Positions 17,964-24,657 of a DNA stretch of 32,000 nucleotides are shown one piece after another (position 1 is the first letter of the stretch; every line of letters begins with the position of its first letter). The DNA is from Candidatus Electronema halotolerans. Its GTDB lineage: Bacteria; Desulfobacterota; Desulfobulbia; Desulfobulbales; Desulfobulbaceae. The position numbers and the translations under genes were made by a program. The stretch is taken from contig OW818675.1 of the NCBI GenBank assembly GCA_942493095.1, positions 330,001 to 362,000 of the forward strand, in the 5' to 3' direction. The notes below the pieces were generated by a model that did not search any database, was not told the origin of the DNA, and saw only the letters and a list, made by a program, of their open reading frames with translations.

Positions 17964-18632
17964 TTAATACGGTCTTTGCCCAACAACATTGCCTGGAGGA
18001 GAGTAACTGCACACCCATATCTGCCCGTTGTCACCGCAGACAGACATGGCGCAGCCGACTTCTTTGGTGGTCTTCCAAACAAGCTGCGTGTAGTGACCAC
18101 AGACCCCGGAACAGCTGTTGTTCGCATAGTTGTAGTCTTTAATCTCGCTTCCCCAAGCACCAACGACATCCTTGGCTGTCTTGGGCGAGAAATCCCGGCG
18201 GCCATCAGACCACATAATGGCGGTGGCCTGATAAATGTTCTCGCCATAGCCGTTGCCGCTGTGATACATGCCGCAGCTGTCGTTCTTGAGATGATCAGCC
18301 CAGCCTTGGGCAATGCCTGCCAGCTTGGCCGACCATCTGAGCGGAGGAGAACCAACCTCCGCCCGCCAGCGGTTGTGCTCGGCTGTCAAGGCAGCCGGGT
18401 CAACACCGCCGCTCCGACTGACTGCTGCGGGGGCAGTTTCCTCTGGAATCACTGATGTTTCCACAGTCCAAATCTCGTCTTCCGCAGCTAAAACGCTGGC
18501 CGAAGGAACAAACGGCTCTGCTGCTTCCGGTTTTGACTGACAGGCTGCAAGAGCGGAAAGCAGCAGAATTCCAGCCATCACGGACATCTTTTTGGGGAGA
18601 TTGCTTCCTCCTGTGAATGTTGCGTTTTTCAT
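17964..18632 (-). CDS. CAP/SCP/PR-1-like domain lipoprotein
   Basis: Signal peptide with lipobox (LLLSALAAC), then a CAP domain with the GHYTQLVWKTT and VCSYSPPGNVVGQRPY signatures. AGGAGG RBS is present. Confidence 0.8.
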   Translation of the reverse strand: MKNATFTGGSNLPKKMSVMAGILLLSALAACQSKPEAAEPFVPSASVLAAEDEIWTVETSVIPEETAPAAVSRSGGVDPAALTAEHNRWRAEVGSPPLRWSAKLAGIAQGWADHLKNDSCGMYHSGNGYGENIYQATAIMWSDGRRDFSPKTAKDVVGAWGSEIKDYNYANNSCSGVCGHYTQLVWKTTKEVGCAMSVCGDNGQIWVCSYSPPGNVVGQRPY

Positions 18633-18815
18633 GATACCCTCCTGGTATGGGTAAAGCAGACAACCCGGCTGTCTCTATTGCGCCAGAGACCCGTGGCTTT
18701 CCGGCACCGCCTCACGACGGTTGTGGCCTTACAACTTTCCAGTGCGGCGACACCGCGTCTCCGCACCAACCAGAAAGTTCTACTAACTCTGCTTGGTTAA
18801 TAAGCAGTTCCTTAT
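18633..18815 (-). promoter_or_regulatory. Roughly 185-nt highly structured 5' leader (candidate riboswitch/cis-regulatory RNA)
   Basis: It lies between a near-consensus promoter and the CAP gene. It contains at least 6 hairpins, mutually exclusive CTGCTT/AAGCAGA/TCTGCTT pairings and an SD-embedding hairpin ATACC-AGGAG-GGTAT. Confidence 0.45.
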
Positions 18816-18821
18816 ACTTTT

Positions 18822-18851
18822 ATTATAGGGCAAAAAAATTGTACCTGTCAA
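18822..18851 (-). promoter_or_regulatory. sigma70 promoter TTGACA-N18-TATAAT (minus strand)
   Basis: Plus-strand tgtcaa at 18846-18851 and attata at 18822-18827. Confidence 0.55.
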
Positions 18852-19029
18852 GTCTTTTTGATAATAATTATCACTTTGCAGTAAATATTTAATCGCATGT
18901 TTATATTTAATTTTTTGAAAAATAAATTCAAAGTTTAAAATATTAAATTATTTTTTTGAACACAAAAAAAATTTTCAGCAGCATTTCTGCGGCGCGGGTG
19001 CCGCTTTTTTCTTCAACCAAGCCGAGCCT

Positions 19030-20547
19030 ATGAAAACACCAAACCAACTTCTTTTGTTCTTTCCAACCCAGCAGCTCACTGCTGTGAAAAATATGCTGGT
19101 GGAACAGCTCTGCCTGCGCGAATGTTCCTCTCTGCCGTTCCAGCAGGTGTTTTTTGACAGCTTTGACTGGCGGCTGCAGCAGAAAAATTTTGTCTGCTTG
19201 CAAAAAGACAGTCAGCTGCATCTGCACGATCTTGCTGGCAGGCCAGCAGCACCGCCCCTGCCGTTGGACGATGATGCGCCGCCCCGTTTCTGGCAGGATT
19301 TGCCTACATCAGCTCTCCAGCAAAAATTAGCTGAGATTGTGGCAATCCGCGCCCTGCTGCCGCAAGCCAAGATTTCCGGCACCGCGACCGAGCTGGAGCT
19401 GCTGGGGCAGGATGAGCAGATTTTTGCCAAAGCCGAGTTGACTGAAATTGGCCCCAACTGCCTGCTGCGTCTGCAAGCGGGCAAAGGCAGCCGGAAACGC
19501 TTCCGCAAATTGGCCCGCAGGCTGAAGCAGCTTGGTGAAATCTGTCCGCTGCCCATGCTGCGCCAGCTTGAGGCTGCCTTGATCGCCGCAGGCCGCAGCC
19601 TTGCCGAATGCGAGCCTGCGGCCCTGCCCGCGCTGGAGCCGGACATGGACAGCCGGGCCGCAGCCAAGCTGATCTGCCGTTCCCTGCTGACGGTCATGCA
19701 GCGCAATCAGCAAGGCGTGATTGACAATATCGACACAGAGTTTCTTCATGATTTCCGGGTGGCCATCCGGCGCACCCGCTCCCTGCTGGCTCTGATGAAA
19801 AATACGTTGGAGCCGGATATTCGCCGCCGCTTCCAAGCCGGATTCCGAACATTGGGCAAAGTCACTGGCCCGGCCCGTGATTTGGACGTGCAATTGCTGA
19901 CTGCGGAAGAATGCCAAACGCGGCTGCCAGAGAGCCTGCACGACGGGCTGGAACGCTTTTTTGCTGACTTGCGGGCCAAACGAAGCCAGGAGCAGATCAA
20001 GCTGACAGAGGGCCTGACTGGGCCGGAATGCCAGACTCTGCTTGCAGACTGGCAGGCGTATCTGGAACAGGACGATGAGGGCAGCGGCAGTGCTGTCGGC
20101 CAAAGCGCGGCAAAAATTATCCGCAAGCAGTTTGCCAAGCTGCTGGAGGGCATTGAGAACCTTGACTGCACCTCTTCTGACGAGGACGTGCATCAAGTGC
20201 GCATCCAAGGAAAAAAACTGCGCTATGCCTTGGAGTTTTTCCGTTCTCTCTATCCAGCCAAAAAAATGGCCCGGCTGATCAAGGACCTCAAGCAGCTTCA
20301 AGATTGTCTGGGACACTGGAATGACCTGTCTGTGCAGGAAAACATGCTGGCCCATTATCTCAGCCAGATTGCGCCGGATGCGGAAGGGGGCGCGCCCCTG
20401 GCCGCTGCGGTCGGCGGTCTCCTGATGGACAGCGACAGCAGACGGCAGCAGGCGCGGGCAGGTTTGGCCGCTGCCTTCCAAAAGTTCACCAGCAAGAAAA
20501 ATCTGCGCCACTGGCAGCAGCTCTTTGGCGCAGCAGCCAGGAAGTAA
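19030..20547 (+). CDS. CHAD domain-containing protein (N-terminal roughly 200 aa of uncertain fold)
   Basis: CHAD helical repeats with the characteristic FLHDFRVAIRRTRSLL and VHQVRIQGKKLRYALEFF motifs. No ExExK CYTH motif is visible in the N-terminal part. Confidence 0.8.
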   Translation: MKTPNQLLLFFPTQQLTAVKNMLVEQLCLRECSSLPFQQVFFDSFDWRLQQKNFVCLQKDSQLHLHDLAGRPAAPPLPLDDDAPPRFWQDLPTSALQQKLAEIVAIRALLPQAKISGTATELELLGQDEQIFAKAELTEIGPNCLLRLQAGKGSRKRFRKLARRLKQLGEICPLPMLRQLEAALIAAGRSLAECEPAALPALEPDMDSRAAAKLICRSLLTVMQRNQQGVIDNIDTEFLHDFRVAIRRTRSLLALMKNTLEPDIRRRFQAGFRTLGKVTGPARDLDVQLLTAEECQTRLPESLHDGLERFFADLRAKRSQEQIKLTEGLTGPECQTLLADWQAYLEQDDEGSGSAVGQSAAKIIRKQFAKLLEGIENLDCTSSDEDVHQVRIQGKKLRYALEFFRSLYPAKKMARLIKDLKQLQDCLGHWNDLSVQENMLAHYLSQIAPDAEGGAPLAAAVGGLLMDSDSRRQQARAGLAAAFQKFTSKKNLRHWQQLFGAAARK

Positions 20548-20626
20548 TCCGCCGCCGCCCCGCCCTTTGCGCCTGCTGAAAATCTCCCTGCAAATAGGAT
20601 ATTTTCGCCAAATTTCTGCTCAATTA

Positions 20627-20635
20627 TGGTATAAT
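20627..20635 (+). promoter_or_regulatory. Extended -10 element TGgTATAAT upstream of gyrB
   Basis: TGGTATAAT lies about 80 nt before the gyrB GTG, and no good -35 is present. The leader contains GGCAGG...CCTGCC and GCCGC...GCGGC stems. Confidence 0.35.
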
Positions 20636-20717
20636 GAGCCGCTTTCGGCAGGCGGCGGGGCACTGCTGCGCAACCCTGCCATATTCCGTCATTAACTCTT
20701 TCTGAGAAGGCATTTAG

Positions 20718-23696
20718 GTGAGTGAACAAAACAAGCCGTCCTACGGGGCGGATCAGATCAAGGTGCTTGACGGGCTTGAAGCCGTGCGCAAGCGTCCGTC
20801 CATGTATATCGGCAACACTTCGGAAGAAGGGCTGCATCACCTGATTTACGAGGTGGTGGACAACTCGATTGACGAGGCCTTGGCCGGATATTGCGACCGG
20901 ATCAGGGTGATCCTCTTGGAGGACGGCTCCTGCTTGGTTGAGGACAACGGGCGCGGCATTCCGATTGACAAGCATCCAACCGAGAACATGACCGCTTTGG
21001 AATTAGTCATGACCACTCTGCACGCGGGCGGCAAGTTTGATCACTCGTCCTACAAGGTTTCCGGCGGCCTGCACGGCGTGGGCGTGTCTGTGGTCAATGC
21101 CCTGTCAACCAAGGTGATTGCTGAGGTCTGGCGCAACGGCAAGGTCTATCGCCAGATGTATGGGTATGGGGACAAGACCAGCGAGCTGGAGGTGATCGGC
21201 ACGAGCGAGCACACCGGCACCCGCATCACCTTCACGCCAGACCCGGAGATATTTACCCAGACTGTCAGCTTCAAGTATGAGACTGTCCTCAACCGGCTCC
21301 GCGAGCTGGCCTTTCTCAACCGGGGCATTCACATCACCCTCAAGGACGAGCGCAGCGGGGCTGAGGATGTTTTTCATTATCAAGGTGGCATTGTTGAATA
21401 TGTCGAACATTTGAACCGCAACCGCACTGCTGTTCATCCCAAGCCTATTTTTATTGAAGGCGAGCGGGACCAGGTGCAGGTGGAAGTCTGTCTGCAATAT
21501 GTTGACAGCTACAGCGAACGGCTGGCCTCCTTTGTCAATAACATCAACACCCGCGAAGGCGGAACCCATCTGGCTGGTTTCCGGGCAGCCCTGACCAAGT
21601 GCATCAACAAGTATGCCACTGACGACATTGTCCCGAAAAATCTGAAAGAACGGATGGAAGGCGATGATGTCCGCGAAGGGCTGACCGCCATTGTTTCCGT
21701 GCGAGTGCCCAATCCTCAGTTTGAAGGCCAGACCAAGACCAAGCTGGGCAACTCAGAGGTCAAGTCGATTGTCGCCTCGGTCTGCAATGAGCAGCTTGGC
21801 GAATATTTGGAGCAGAACCCGCAGGTTGCCAAGCAGATTCTCAGTAAGGCCGTGGAAGCGGCGCGGGCGCGGGAGGCGGCCCGGCGGGCGCGGGACCTGT
21901 CGCGGAAAAAAGACGGCCTTTCCGTGATGATGGCGGGCAAATTGGCTGAATGCCAGTCGAAAAAACCGGAAGAACGCGAACTGTTCATTGTTGAGGGTGA
22001 TTCAGCAGGCGGCTGTTTTTCCGGGGCTACCAAAGTAGCCTTGGCTGATGGCCGCGCTCTGAGCTTCCTGGAGCTGATCGCCGAGCAGGCTCAAGGCAGG
22101 GATCACTGCTGCTACACAATCCGGGATGATGGCAGAATTGGACTGGAGCGAATCCTTCATCCCCGCCTGACTAAACGGCAGCAGGAAGTGCTGCGAGTAA
22201 CCTTGGATCATGGCGAGCAGATTGTCTGCACCCCGGATCACCGTTTCATGCTTCGGGACGGCAGCTATTGCCCGGCAGAACAGCTGGCCGAAGGCAGTTC
22301 GCTGATGCCGCTTTACCGCAAATTGTCCGACAAAGCCAGCCATTCAGGCAATGAGCTGGTCTGGGAGCCGGATGCGGGCCGCTGGCGTTTTCCGCATCTT
22401 TTTTCCGAGCAGCCGAGATGCCGGGCTGCGTGGGAAGATTTTGAGGAGGATGCGTCCTGCGCGGCTGACAATCATCATGTTGTCTCTGTGGAAAAGCTGG
22501 CCGAGCGCATGGATGTCTATGACATTGAAGTGCCCAACACCCACAATTTTGCCTTGGCTGGCGGTGTGTTTGTCCACAACAGCGCCAAGCAGGGCCGGGA
22601 CCGCTCTTTCCAAGCCATTCTGCCTTTGCGCGGCAAGATCATGAATGTGGAAAAGGCCCGTTTTGACAAAATCCTTGACTCTGAAGAGATCAAGCAACTT
22701 ATTGCCGCCCTTGGCACTGGCATTGGCCGGGAGGAGTTTGACCCAAGCAAGCTGCGCTATCATAAAGTCATTATCATGACAGACGCGGACGTGGATGGCG
22801 CGCATATCCGCACCTTGCTGCTGACCTTTTTCTACCGCCAGATGCTGCCGCTGATTGAGAACGGGCATATCTACATCGGCCAGCCGCCGCTCTACCGCTT
22901 GGGCCGGGGCAAAAAAGAGCAGTATTTCTTGAATGATGATGCCCTGAACAGTCATCTCTACGATCAGGCGGCCCAGTTTGTCCAAGTCCGGGTGGAGAGC
23001 GGCGGTGAAATTGTCGGGCAGGAATTAGTCAATCTTCTGAAGAAGCTGACTTTTTTTGAGCAGCTTAATGCGTTCTTGGAGCGGATGAATCTGCACGAAA
23101 CGCTTGTTCGTTTTCTGCTGGCCAATGATGTGCATTCAGCAGATCAGTTCAAGGACGAGCAGTTCCTGCGTGAGCTGCTGGCCAAGTTAGCCAGCCAAGG
23201 CGCGGCGGTCAGCGAAATCCGGCCCTGCTTCTCCCGGCCCGGCTGCTTTGAGGCGGATGCGGCCTTGCAGGGGCTGGGCCACAGCCGCACGGTCATTGGC
23301 CCGCATATTCCGCTGATTCCTGAATACCGCCTTGGTCTTGATCTTTATCCTGAAATTCAGGATTATGTCGGCATCAGCTTCAGCATCTGCAAGAGTGCCG
23401 CTTCCGGGCAGGAGCGGGATATTCCGGCCAAGAACTGGCGCGAGCTGATCCGGCTGGTGCGCGAGGAAACCTTCCGGGGCAGCCATTTGCAACGCTACAA
23501 GGGTTTGGGCGAGATGAACCCGGAGCAGCTCTGGGAAACCACCATGAACCCGGCCAACCGCACCCTGCTGCAAGTGAGGATTGAGGATGCCGAGGCAGCG
23601 GATGATCTGTTTGTCACCCTGATGGGCGACAAGGTGGAGCCACGGCGTGAGTTCATTCAGAATCACGCTTTGGAAGTTGCTGAGTTGGATGTGTGA
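20718..23696 (+). CDS. gyrB: DNA gyrase subunit B, interrupted by an in-frame mini-intein
   Basis: GHKL ATPase (VLDGLEAVRKRPSMYIG, EVVDNSIDEA, GLHGVGVS), Toprim (EGDSAGG/SAKQGRDR, IMTDADVDGAHI) and tail (GLGEMNPEQLWETTMNP). It is 992 aa versus about 803 aa after removal of residues 433-621. Confidence 0.95.
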   Translation: MSEQNKPSYGADQIKVLDGLEAVRKRPSMYIGNTSEEGLHHLIYEVVDNSIDEALAGYCDRIRVILLEDGSCLVEDNGRGIPIDKHPTENMTALELVMTTLHAGGKFDHSSYKVSGGLHGVGVSVVNALSTKVIAEVWRNGKVYRQMYGYGDKTSELEVIGTSEHTGTRITFTPDPEIFTQTVSFKYETVLNRLRELAFLNRGIHITLKDERSGAEDVFHYQGGIVEYVEHLNRNRTAVHPKPIFIEGERDQVQVEVCLQYVDSYSERLASFVNNINTREGGTHLAGFRAALTKCINKYATDDIVPKNLKERMEGDDVREGLTAIVSVRVPNPQFEGQTKTKLGNSEVKSIVASVCNEQLGEYLEQNPQVAKQILSKAVEAARAREAARRARDLSRKKDGLSVMMAGKLAECQSKKPEERELFIVEGDSAGGCFSGATKVALADGRALSFLELIAEQAQGRDHCCYTIRDDGRIGLERILHPRLTKRQQEVLRVTLDHGEQIVCTPDHRFMLRDGSYCPAEQLAEGSSLMPLYRKLSDKASHSGNELVWEPDAGRWRFPHLFSEQPRCRAAWEDFEEDASCAADNHHVVSVEKLAERMDVYDIEVPNTHNFALAGGVFVHNSAKQGRDRSFQAILPLRGKIMNVEKARFDKILDSEEIKQLIAALGTGIGREEFDPSKLRYHKVIIMTDADVDGAHIRTLLLTFFYRQMLPLIENGHIYIGQPPLYRLGRGKKEQYFLNDDALNSHLYDQAAQFVQVRVESGGEIVGQELVNLLKKLTFFEQLNAFLERMNLHETLVRFLLANDVHSADQFKDEQFLRELLAKLASQGAAVSEIRPCFSRPGCFEADAALQGLGHSRTVIGPHIPLIPEYRLGLDLYPEIQDYVGISFSICKSAASGQERDIPAKNWRELIRLVREETFRGSHLQRYKGLGEMNPEQLWETTMNPANRTLLQVRIEDAEAADDLFVTLMGDKVEPRREFIQNHALEVAELDV
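22014..22580 (+). other. GyrB mini-intein (189 aa, Hint domain only)
   Basis: It starts with Cys (CFSGATKVALADG), contains TPDHRF (block B) and ends VYDIEVPNTHNFALAGGVFVHN followed by Ser+1. Excision recreates EGDSAGG-SAKQGRDR. Confidence 0.85.
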
Positions 23697-23730: not shown

Positions 23731-23757
23731 TGTAACTAATTTCTATTTTTGAACAAA

Positions 23758-24657
23758 ATGAAATTTTTCTTTGCAATATTTCCTATTTTTTTGATGCTCA
23801 TCGGAATTGCTGCGATGGTTGCAGTTATTTTAGGAATGAAATTCATTCTTCGCCGACAGAAGATACGTTCTCCGTTCACAGAAAAAATATTGAGAAATCC
23901 TGGCAGCTCAATATTGAAAAAAATAAACGAAGAAAGAGATGATTTTTTATCTTATGGAATCATGATCATGCTGGTTCCTGTTTTAATTTACTCCATTCAT
24001 CTGTCGCAGTCATACTTTGGAGGAGTAAAAGAGAATATTTTCAGAACAGTATTCTTTATACTTCAGATTGTCCTTGTTATCTCTGTGCTTGCAGTATTGC
24101 TTGTCAAAAGGATAAAGAACATCAAAAAGTTGCGTCTCCGTTATTATGGCGAATTAGCAACAGGCCAATATCTTCAGCAGCTTGTGCGCGGCGGATATCA
24201 CGTTTTCCACGATTTTCCTGCGGATACGTTCAACATTGACCATATCGCAGTCGGTCCCGGCGGCGTGTTTGCTATTGAAACTAAAGCGCGGAGCAAGCCT
24301 GTGCTGAAAAATGGCAGCGGGCGTGATGAGGCCAAGGTGATTTATGACGGCAAGGAACTCAAATTCCCGACATGGACAGAGACAGAGCCGTTGGCGCAGG
24401 CCGAGCGACAGGCAAAATGGCTGGCTGATTTTCTGACCAAAACAGTTGGCGAGCCGGTCACAGTGCAGCCGATGCTTGCTCTGCCGGGCTGGTTTGTGAA
24501 CAGAACGACACAGCAGGGGATGCTGGTTGTCAACCCGAAGAGTCTTTCCTTTCTGCTGAAAAACAAGCTGCTTTCAGAGAAGATGATCAACGCTGTCGCG
24601 CATCAGATTGAACAGCGGTGCCGCGATATTGATCTAAGCGGAAGAGGACAAAAATAA
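23758..24657 (+). CDS. Membrane-anchored NERD (nuclease-related domain) protein
   Basis: About 120 aa with 3-4 TM helices are followed by NERD motifs (GELATGQYLQQL...GYHVFHDFP...FNIDHIAVGPGGVFAIETKA). The gene is AT-rich. The start could be ATG 23758 or TTG 23749. Confidence 0.75.
   Translation: MKFFFAIFPIFLMLIGIAAMVAVILGMKFILRRQKIRSPFTEKILRNPGSSILKKINEERDDFLSYGIMIMLVPVLIYSIHLSQSYFGGVKENIFRTVFFILQIVLVISVLAVLLVKRIKNIKKLRLRYYGELATGQYLQQLVRGGYHVFHDFPADTFNIDHIAVGPGGVFAIETKARSKPVLKNGSGRDEAKVIYDGKELKFPTWTETEPLAQAERQAKWLADFLTKTVGEPVTVQPMLALPGWFVNRTTQQGMLVVNPKSLSFLLKNKLLSEKMINAVAHQIEQRCRDIDLSGRGQK

Follow-up and report, generated by a model that had tools for sequence, protein, structure and literature searches.

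We examined a 32,000-nucleotide stretch of DNA from Candidatus Electronema halotolerans (GenBank assembly GCA_942493095.1, contig OW818675.1, positions 330,001 to 362,000; hereafter, the window), and found that the sole gyrB gene seen in it very probably encodes a cis-splicing class-1 mini-intein of 189 amino acids (aa), inserted in the Toprim domain of the DNA gyrase B subunit. The element is a further allele of a known GyrB-intein family, in a lineage where it has not previously been remarked on. Its local interest is the natural series of empty, full-length, and mini alleles found in cable bacteria.

A mini-intein in the Toprim domain of GyrB

The gyrB open reading frame (ORF; positions 20718 to 23696 on the + strand, including the stop codon) encodes a 992-aa, 111.6-kDa precursor that matches the GyrB models TIGR01059 (972 bits) and NF011501 (1091 bits). 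It is identical to CAK8712338.1, encoded on a 3.2-Mb contig of Ca. Electronema halotolerans, whose deposited name is only "DNA gyrase subunit B". A pattern search placed the inserted segment between residue 432, at the end of EGDSAGG, and residue 622, at the start of SAKQGR. The NCBIfam GyrB match on the N-terminal side ends at residue 433, and removing the 189-aa segment leaves 803 aa, the length of NF011501 and of intein-less orthologues. Translation of positions 22014 to 22583 yields CFSGATKV...VCTPDHRF...VYDIEVPNTHNFALAGGVFVHN, followed by Ser. The first-pass annotation, made from the letters and their ORF translations, had given the 992-aa ORF, the segment at residues 433-621, its initial Cys, the TPDHRF motif, and the +1 Ser, and all of these coordinates and sequence statements were correct.

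Three curated intein models matched the 189-aa segment above their cut-offs: Pfam PF14890 Intein_splicing (2.5e-16, 60.3 bits; cut-off 35.8), NCBIfam TIGR01445 intein_Nterm (36.5 bits; cut-off 24.5), and NCBIfam TIGR01443 intein_Cterm (28.4 bits; cut-off 15.6). Such a profile search had been proposed in the annotation as a check of the intein assignment. An AlphaFold model of the segment (predicted local distance difference test [pLDDT] 89, predicted template modeling score [pTM] 0.82) has a HINT fold, and Foldseek placed it closest to the DnaE, DnaB, and RecA mini-inteins (highest target TM-score, 0.85). There were 63 PDB matches at E ≤ 0.001, and the top ones that we examined were inteins or related Hint domains. 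Both lines of evidence agree with the annotation's call of a mini-intein, and the residues of a class-1 intein are present in the sequence: Cys1, a TxxH motif, a penultimate His, a terminal Asn, and a +1 Ser.

The window intein was also compared with 85 other inteins at the same site. In these, 55 positions are conserved to at least 90%, and the window intein matches the consensus at every one, C1, T73, H76, D170, H177, H188, and N189 among them; it departs from the consensus at six moderately conserved positions. To gauge selection, the window was compared with its 94% relative (locus L001) at a synonymous divergence (dS) of ~0.5. The ratio of nonsynonymous to synonymous substitution rates (dN/dS) was 0.069 for the splicing domain, 0.045 for the N-extein, and 0.098 for the C-extein; by this estimate, purifying selection constrains the splicing domain as strongly as it does GyrB itself. 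The conserved residues, the dN/dS ratios, and the likeness to the Ssp GyrB intein (see below) together make an active class-1 mini-intein the best reading, namely, that the element is real and probably active.

When spliced in silico, the query aligned without gaps to residues 376-535 of E. coli-type GyrB (804-aa chain 6rks_B, E = 3.9e-70), which puts the insertion between the counterparts of E. coli G430 and S431. This is six residues past E424, the Glu of EGDSAGG and the catalytic Toprim glutamate of type IIA topoisomerases. A 21-kDa insert six residues from Glu424 should disable the enzyme unless it is removed. The annotation had described the segment as splitting the EGDSAGG/SAKQGR motif of Toprim, and the gapless alignment obtained after its removal bears this out.

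Other types of element were considered and rejected. A class 3 intein has no N-terminal nucleophile, a WCT motif, and a block F Cys, whereas Cys1 is present here and block F (VYDIEV) lacks a Cys. A naturally split intein was set aside since both halves are encoded by one uninterrupted ORF of 992 codons, and a BIL domain was rejected on sequence.

Intein layout and predicted splicing

All parts of the gene lie on the + strand. The N-extein (positions 20718 to 22013; GyrB residues 1-432) comprises the ATPase domain, the transducer domain, and the first part of Toprim; its last residues are ...ELFIVEGDSAGG. The mini-intein, delimited by translation, profile models, and predicted fold, follows at positions 22014 to 22580 (ORF residues 433-621; 21.4 kDa; Cys1 to Asn189). 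Its N-terminal splicing subdomain (intein residues 1-103; positions 22014 to 22322) was assigned from TIGR01445 and alignments and was modeled with pLDDT 92-98; it includes block A Cys1 at positions 22014-22016 and the block B motif T73-P-D-H76 at 22230-22241. A remnant of an HNH homing endonuclease (intein residues 104-149; positions 22323 to 22460), assigned by alignment to a full-length intein profile, separates this from the C-terminal splicing subdomain (intein residues 150-189; positions 22461 to 22580), which was assigned from TIGR01443 and profile alignment. The latter contains block F, VYDIEVPNTHNF, with D170 at positions 22521-22523 and H177 at 22542-22544, and block G, VFVHN, with H188 at 22575-22577 and N189 at 22578-22580. 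The C-extein (positions 22581 to 23693; GyrB residues 622-992) opens with the +1 nucleophile Ser (AGC, positions 22581-22583) of SAKQGRDR and holds the remainder of Toprim, an insertion that is typical of 803/804-aa GyrB proteins, and the C-terminal domain. A six-frame hidden Markov model (HMM) scan of the window found no further intein of the GyrB-intein family. The guanine-plus-cytosine content of the intein (0.571) is like that of the extein (0.562) and thus does not point to recent import.

From the conserved residues and established intein chemistry, we propose the following course for splicing. The 111.6-kDa precursor would be translated as a single chain, and Cys1 would then undergo an N-to-S acyl shift at the Gly432-Cys433 bond, aided by Thr73 and His76 of block B. 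The resulting thioester would be attacked by the hydroxyl of Ser+1 to give a branched intermediate, and cyclization of Asn189, aided by His188 and block F residues, would release the 21.4-kDa intein. A final O-to-N shift would leave a normal Gly-Ser bond, restoring EGDSAGG-SAKQGR in a 90.2-kDa GyrB. Trypsin digestion of the spliced protein would yield the junction peptide ELFIVEGDSAGGSAK (in E. aureum, ELFLVEGDSAGGSAK).

The linker as a remnant of an HNH endonuclease

The two splicing halves are separated by ~46-48 aa (intein residues 104-149/151). Pfam matched the 189 aa with Intein_splicing only and with no endonuclease family, either there or in the linker; the linker searched by itself yielded nothing beyond noise (DUF952 at 0.035), and a regular expression for the HNH motif had no match in the window intein. 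We then built a profile from 14 full-length alleles and aligned the window intein to it. The intein covers profile positions 1-151 and 396-435 only, with positions 152-395 absent, and intein residues 104-147 align to profile positions 104-151. The missing stretch amounts to ~244 residues and includes the HNH motif, with the gap opening at the first HNH histidine. Full-length alleles have HHxDFNKxNNNPxNI there, followed by an (E/D)H…H stretch, and Pfam HNH_3 matches them at 5e-4, which is below its cut-off. A GyrB intein was reportedly found to contain an HNH endonuclease in a 1997 paper.

Local BLAST against the allele of Electronema sp. JM gave a consistent picture, with matches for intein nucleotides 1-308, 327-372, and 455-567 and none between them. 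On these alignments, the linker is the N-terminal ~45 residues of the former endonuclease region together with its last few residues, and the mini form is best derived from a 433-436-aa HNH-bearing parent by a single in-frame deletion of ~244 residues, with a probable junction at about residues 147-150. Two deletions, as read from a protein MAFFT alignment, were also considered, and the local BLAST and profile HMM results make one deletion the simpler reading; a global MAFFT alignment of the intein DNA with a 433-aa allele misplaced the C-terminal block and was not used. In the AlphaFold model, the remnant forms strands at residues 102-104, 114-118, and 123-125 (pLDDT ~80) and an ill-defined loop at residues 131-150 (pLDDT ~54-60). 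Its dN/dS is 0.225, with 13 of 25 changes nonsynonymous (binomial P 0.003), from which the remnant is estimated to be more relaxed than the splicing domain, yet below neutrality.

The annotation had seen no homing endonuclease and a linker of roughly 50 aa between the splicing halves. The absence of the endonuclease was upheld by the Pfam and HNH motif searches and by the missing profile positions, and the length of the linker was about right; a simple spacer it is not, since the profile and BLAST alignments reveal it as a remnant of the HNH domain. With its nuclease lost, the element can no longer cut empty alleles itself.

Empty, full-length, and mini alleles in cable bacteria

A search with the whole 992-aa protein retrieved GyrB proteins of cable bacteria, in which the same site occurs in several states. 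Intein-less GyrB proteins of 799-803 aa are found in Electronema spp. PJ, V4, VV, and JC and in Electrothrix aestuarii, AR4, and GW3-4, and they include the closest relative of the window protein (90.4% extein identity). Full-length inteins of 433-436 aa, in GyrB proteins of 1225-1236 aa, occur in Electronema sp. JM, Electrothrix AU1_5, and two metagenome proteins. The mini forms are of 189 aa (GyrB 992 aa; the window and its 94% relative), 181 aa (GyrB 980 aa; E. aureum), and 155 aa (GyrB 958 aa; E. gigas and one other). Proteins with inteins of different sizes can bear one species name: under Ca. Electrothrix gigas are both P0077, with a 155-aa intein, and isolate AU1_5 (L028), with a 435-aa intein (also P0075 and L025).

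These states are interleaved on a tree of the exteins. JM (full-length) is sister to PJ (empty), E. aureum (mini) is nested among empty alleles, and E. gigas (mini) lies beside AU1_5 (full-length), which makes the segment an optional element and not a conserved insertion of GyrB. The annotation had proposed alignment with intein-less orthologues, which yielded 803-aa relatives without the segment at 86-90% extein identity. It had also named a conserved, non-splicing insertion as one finding that would overturn its reading, and this does not apply, the closest orthologues being 803 aa long and without the segment.

Derived linker residues (SG, AGRWRF, AW[EQ]D, and AADN) were present in the window and E. 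aureum minis and in no full-length form. Together with the shared junction, they point to one ancestral deletion for the two. On a tree of the splicing domains, E. aureum groups with full-length Electronema inteins, and its extein falls in another clade. Separately, minis with the identical junction LMPLY/LDENDAT group with different full-length inteins, which hints at recombination of alleles. Recombination between intein alleles in cable bacteria is, tentatively, a reasonable explanation of these tree conflicts.

A further proposal is that the mini-intein is still spreading among cable bacteria, either by homologous recombination or through the nuclease of co-occurring full-length alleles acting in trans. 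In its favor, the window and E. aureum minis share a junction and derived residues and yet sit in different extein clades, adjoining intein-less and full-length alleles; the splicing domain of E. aureum groups with full-length Electronema inteins, as described above; and the two 155-aa Electrothrix minis have one junction, each grouping with a different full-length intein. These trees, however, are based on 143-145 columns and were read without clade supports, the same pattern could come from vertical inheritance with repeated loss or from convergent deletions, and no transfer event was observed, so that we regard present-day spread as a possibility on the unlikely side.

Sequence flanking the site was examined for traces of homing. 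Sliding-window identity to the closest intein-less allele neither fell nor rose noticeably near the site, and no co-conversion tract can be claimed. The codon of the +1 Ser was AGY in 78 of 80 intein-bearing gyrB loci (L006-L085) from many phyla, and TCG, TCT, AGT, and AGC in four intein-less cable-bacterium alleles (L002 and L086-L088). This bias may be compatible with co-conversion or with a target preference of the nuclease, the comparison being with four intein-less alleles only.

The literature was searched for reports of cable-bacterium inteins and for Toprim together with intein, in both cases with no result, and the species description of Ca. Electronema halotolerans mentions neither inteins nor gyrase (PMC10030654).

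Genomic neighborhood

The window gyrB lies outside any dnaA-dnaN-recF cluster. Directly downstream, at positions 23749 to 24657 (+), is a gene for a 302-aa protein whose N-terminal region is hydrophobic and which has a nuclease-related NERD domain (PF08378, 2.6e-18). The order of CAP-domain gene, CHAD-domain gene, and gyrB (positions 17964 to 23696) is common to the window and L001. The intein-less relative L002 differs, with its CHAD and CAP genes downstream of gyrB and dnaG-rpoD upstream. A cyclic di-GMP riboswitch aptamer of the c-di-GMP-I-UAU type (RF03168; 67.1 bits, gathering cut-off 65.9; E = 1.2e-12) was detected at positions 18655 to 18736 (-), directly upstream of the CAP-domain (PF00188) ORF at 17964 to 18632 (-).

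Discussion

If the element is an active mini-intein, its persistence without a nuclease would follow from the need to excise it precisely at the protein level for a working gyrase. The annotation's view that gyrase activity cannot do without splicing is sound, on the premises that there is no second gyrB copy and that splicing actually takes place. No second Ca. E. halotolerans GyrB was found among the 120 best protein matches.

Certain observations weigh against the reading that we favor. Ala5 and His66 are not among the commonest residues at their positions (Asp in 81% and Asn in 86% of the 85 alleles, respectively), though neither position is known as catalytic and the 94% relative retains Asp and Asn. 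A second gyrB copy may exist elsewhere in the 3.2-Mb genome. Finally, residues 129-147 align weakly to the endonuclease profile, which leaves the exact deletion junction uncertain by a few residues.

The presence of an intein in a filament extending across a steep redox gradient also raises the idea of a conditional switch, in which redox, salt, or temperature would gate splicing and so place gyrase under post-translational control. The intein has seven cysteines (residues 1, 32, 33, 72, 86, 136, and 149), two of which, C33 and C72, are among the family positions conserved to at least 90%, and conditional splicing is generally known for other inteins (reviewed in PMC7765530). However, the present data contain no sign of gating, the conserved cysteines are common to alleles from many unrelated habitats, and the existence of close cable-bacterium relatives without the intein argues against an indispensable regulatory role; we consider such a switch very improbable. 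The more specific notion that the mini-intein is kept in some cable bacteria as a cysteine-dependent, redox- or salt-sensitive throttle on gyrase is equally a long shot. If this were true, replication and supercoiling would in turn be throttled, in cells that occupy different redox positions within a single conducting filament. In a weaker version, the polymorphism of empty, full-length, and mini alleles may reflect an ongoing homing cycle, with recombinational spread of minis in cable-bacterium populations.

Least likely of all is a splicing-dead relic, with the 992-aa protein working despite its insert or another gene supplying GyrB: residues A5 and H66 are unusual at moderately conserved positions, but all catalytic and all of the at least 90%-conserved family positions are intact, the dN/dS of the splicing domain is as low as that of the exteins, tolerance of a 21-kDa insert six residues past the catalytic Glu of an invariant motif would be surprising, and the best protein matches held no second GyrB of this species.

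An active mini-intein, as we read the element, would have practical consequences. The mature product of CAK8712338.1 is predicted to be 803 aa and not the 992 aa of the annotated protein. The gyrB gene is widely used as a phylogenetic marker, and its variable length in cable bacteria (799-803, 958, 980, 992, and 1225-1236 aa) can disturb alignments, primers, and orthology calls. Cable bacteria also offer a compact natural series at one site, consisting of the empty allele, the HNH-bearing form, and two or three derivatives shortened by deletion, in some cases under a single species name, which is a convenient case for study of the homing cycle. Their minis are naturally minimized relatives of the Ssp GyrB intein, which is used in biotechnology. 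Knowledge of how inteins work is unchanged by the present finding.

Comparison with known inteins

To place the element in its family, we surveyed one genome per species, which gave more than 533 related stretches, and analyzed the best 80. All 80 carry the intein exactly at EG[DNE]SA[GS]G/C…HN/S[AGT]K (slashes mark the intein borders), in keeping with the annotation's suggestion that known GyrB inteins be sought at the same insertion site. Their bacterial hosts are cyanobacteria (including Trichodesmium erythraeum IMS101), Chloroflexi, Gamma- and Deltaproteobacteria, Planctomycetes, and Patescibacteria, and their archaeal hosts are Methanoperedens, Methanothrix, Methanomassiliicoccales, haloarchaea, and DPANN. 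By tblastn, the related loci were 39-75% identical, with E values from 2e-54 to 6e-90. GyrB inteins are on record in Actinobacteria, Chloroflexi, Cyanobacteria, Proteobacteria, and haloarchaea, with cross-domain transfers noted (PMC4760082, PMC4071816), and the window element is an ordinary member of this long-known, widespread family, to which the Ssp GyrB intein also belongs.

Intein sizes in the family run continuously from 143 to 372 aa, because deletion end points differ, with a further cluster at 433-436 aa. The HNH motif is retained only in the full-length forms and one 372-aa form, and the 189-aa form was seen only in the window's species and close metagenome relatives. Two side observations concern the wider family. 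At 11 loci from other phyla (L010, L011, L012, L017, L031, L038, L040, L050, L060, L077, and L078), the gyrB ORF runs more than 900 residues past the start of the intein, so the same gene probably contains one or more further inteins downstream. In addition, some short proteins end in the N-half or start with the C-half of a GyrB intein (P0009, 318 aa, on a 72-kb contig; P0065, 255 aa, on a 1.15-Mb contig; P0022, P0025, and P0063); these could be frameshifts, gene-calling breaks inside large inteins, or genuinely split GyrB inteins.

Among known systems, the full-length sibling inteins of Electronema sp. JM and TJ, E. nielsenii, Ca. Electrothrix aarhusensis, and E. gigas AU1_5 occupy the identical site, with 79-85% identity in the splicing domain. 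They share with the window the first ~45 residues of the endonuclease region and differ in carrying HHxDFNKxNNNPxNI and ~244 more residues, both of which the window lacks. Other natural GyrB minis, including those of E. aureum (181 aa), E. gigas (155 aa), Trichodesmium erythraeum IMS101 (244 aa), Methanoperedens (143-228 aa), and many Chloroflexi, cyanobacteria, and archaea, have the same site and catalytic blocks and have also lost the HNH motif, though their deletion end points differ. The solved mini-inteins Ssp and Npu DnaE, Ssp DnaB, and Mtu RecA have the HINT fold (Foldseek probability 1.00, target TM-scores 0.72-0.85) and the class-1 residues in common with the window intein; however, they are only 14-22% identical in sequence, belong to other hosts and sites, and have no equivalent of its remnant hairpin at residues 102-125.

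The Ssp GyrB intein of Synechocystis sp. PCC 6803 interrupts the same host protein and is itself 435 aa long, and a full length of 435 aa is common to cyanobacterial alleles (L072, L076, and L083) and cable-bacterial ones. Cyanobacterial alleles are only ~67-70% identical to the window in the splicing domain. The Ssp GyrB C-intein ends in GVFVHN and is followed by the extein residues SA (PMC2794532); the last six intein residues and first two C-extein residues of the window are identical to these. In E. coli, an Ssp GyrB mini-intein engineered to lack the endonuclease reaches >90% cis-splicing (PMC3620165), whereas the mini-intein of the window arose naturally and keeps a 46-aa remnant of the endonuclease.

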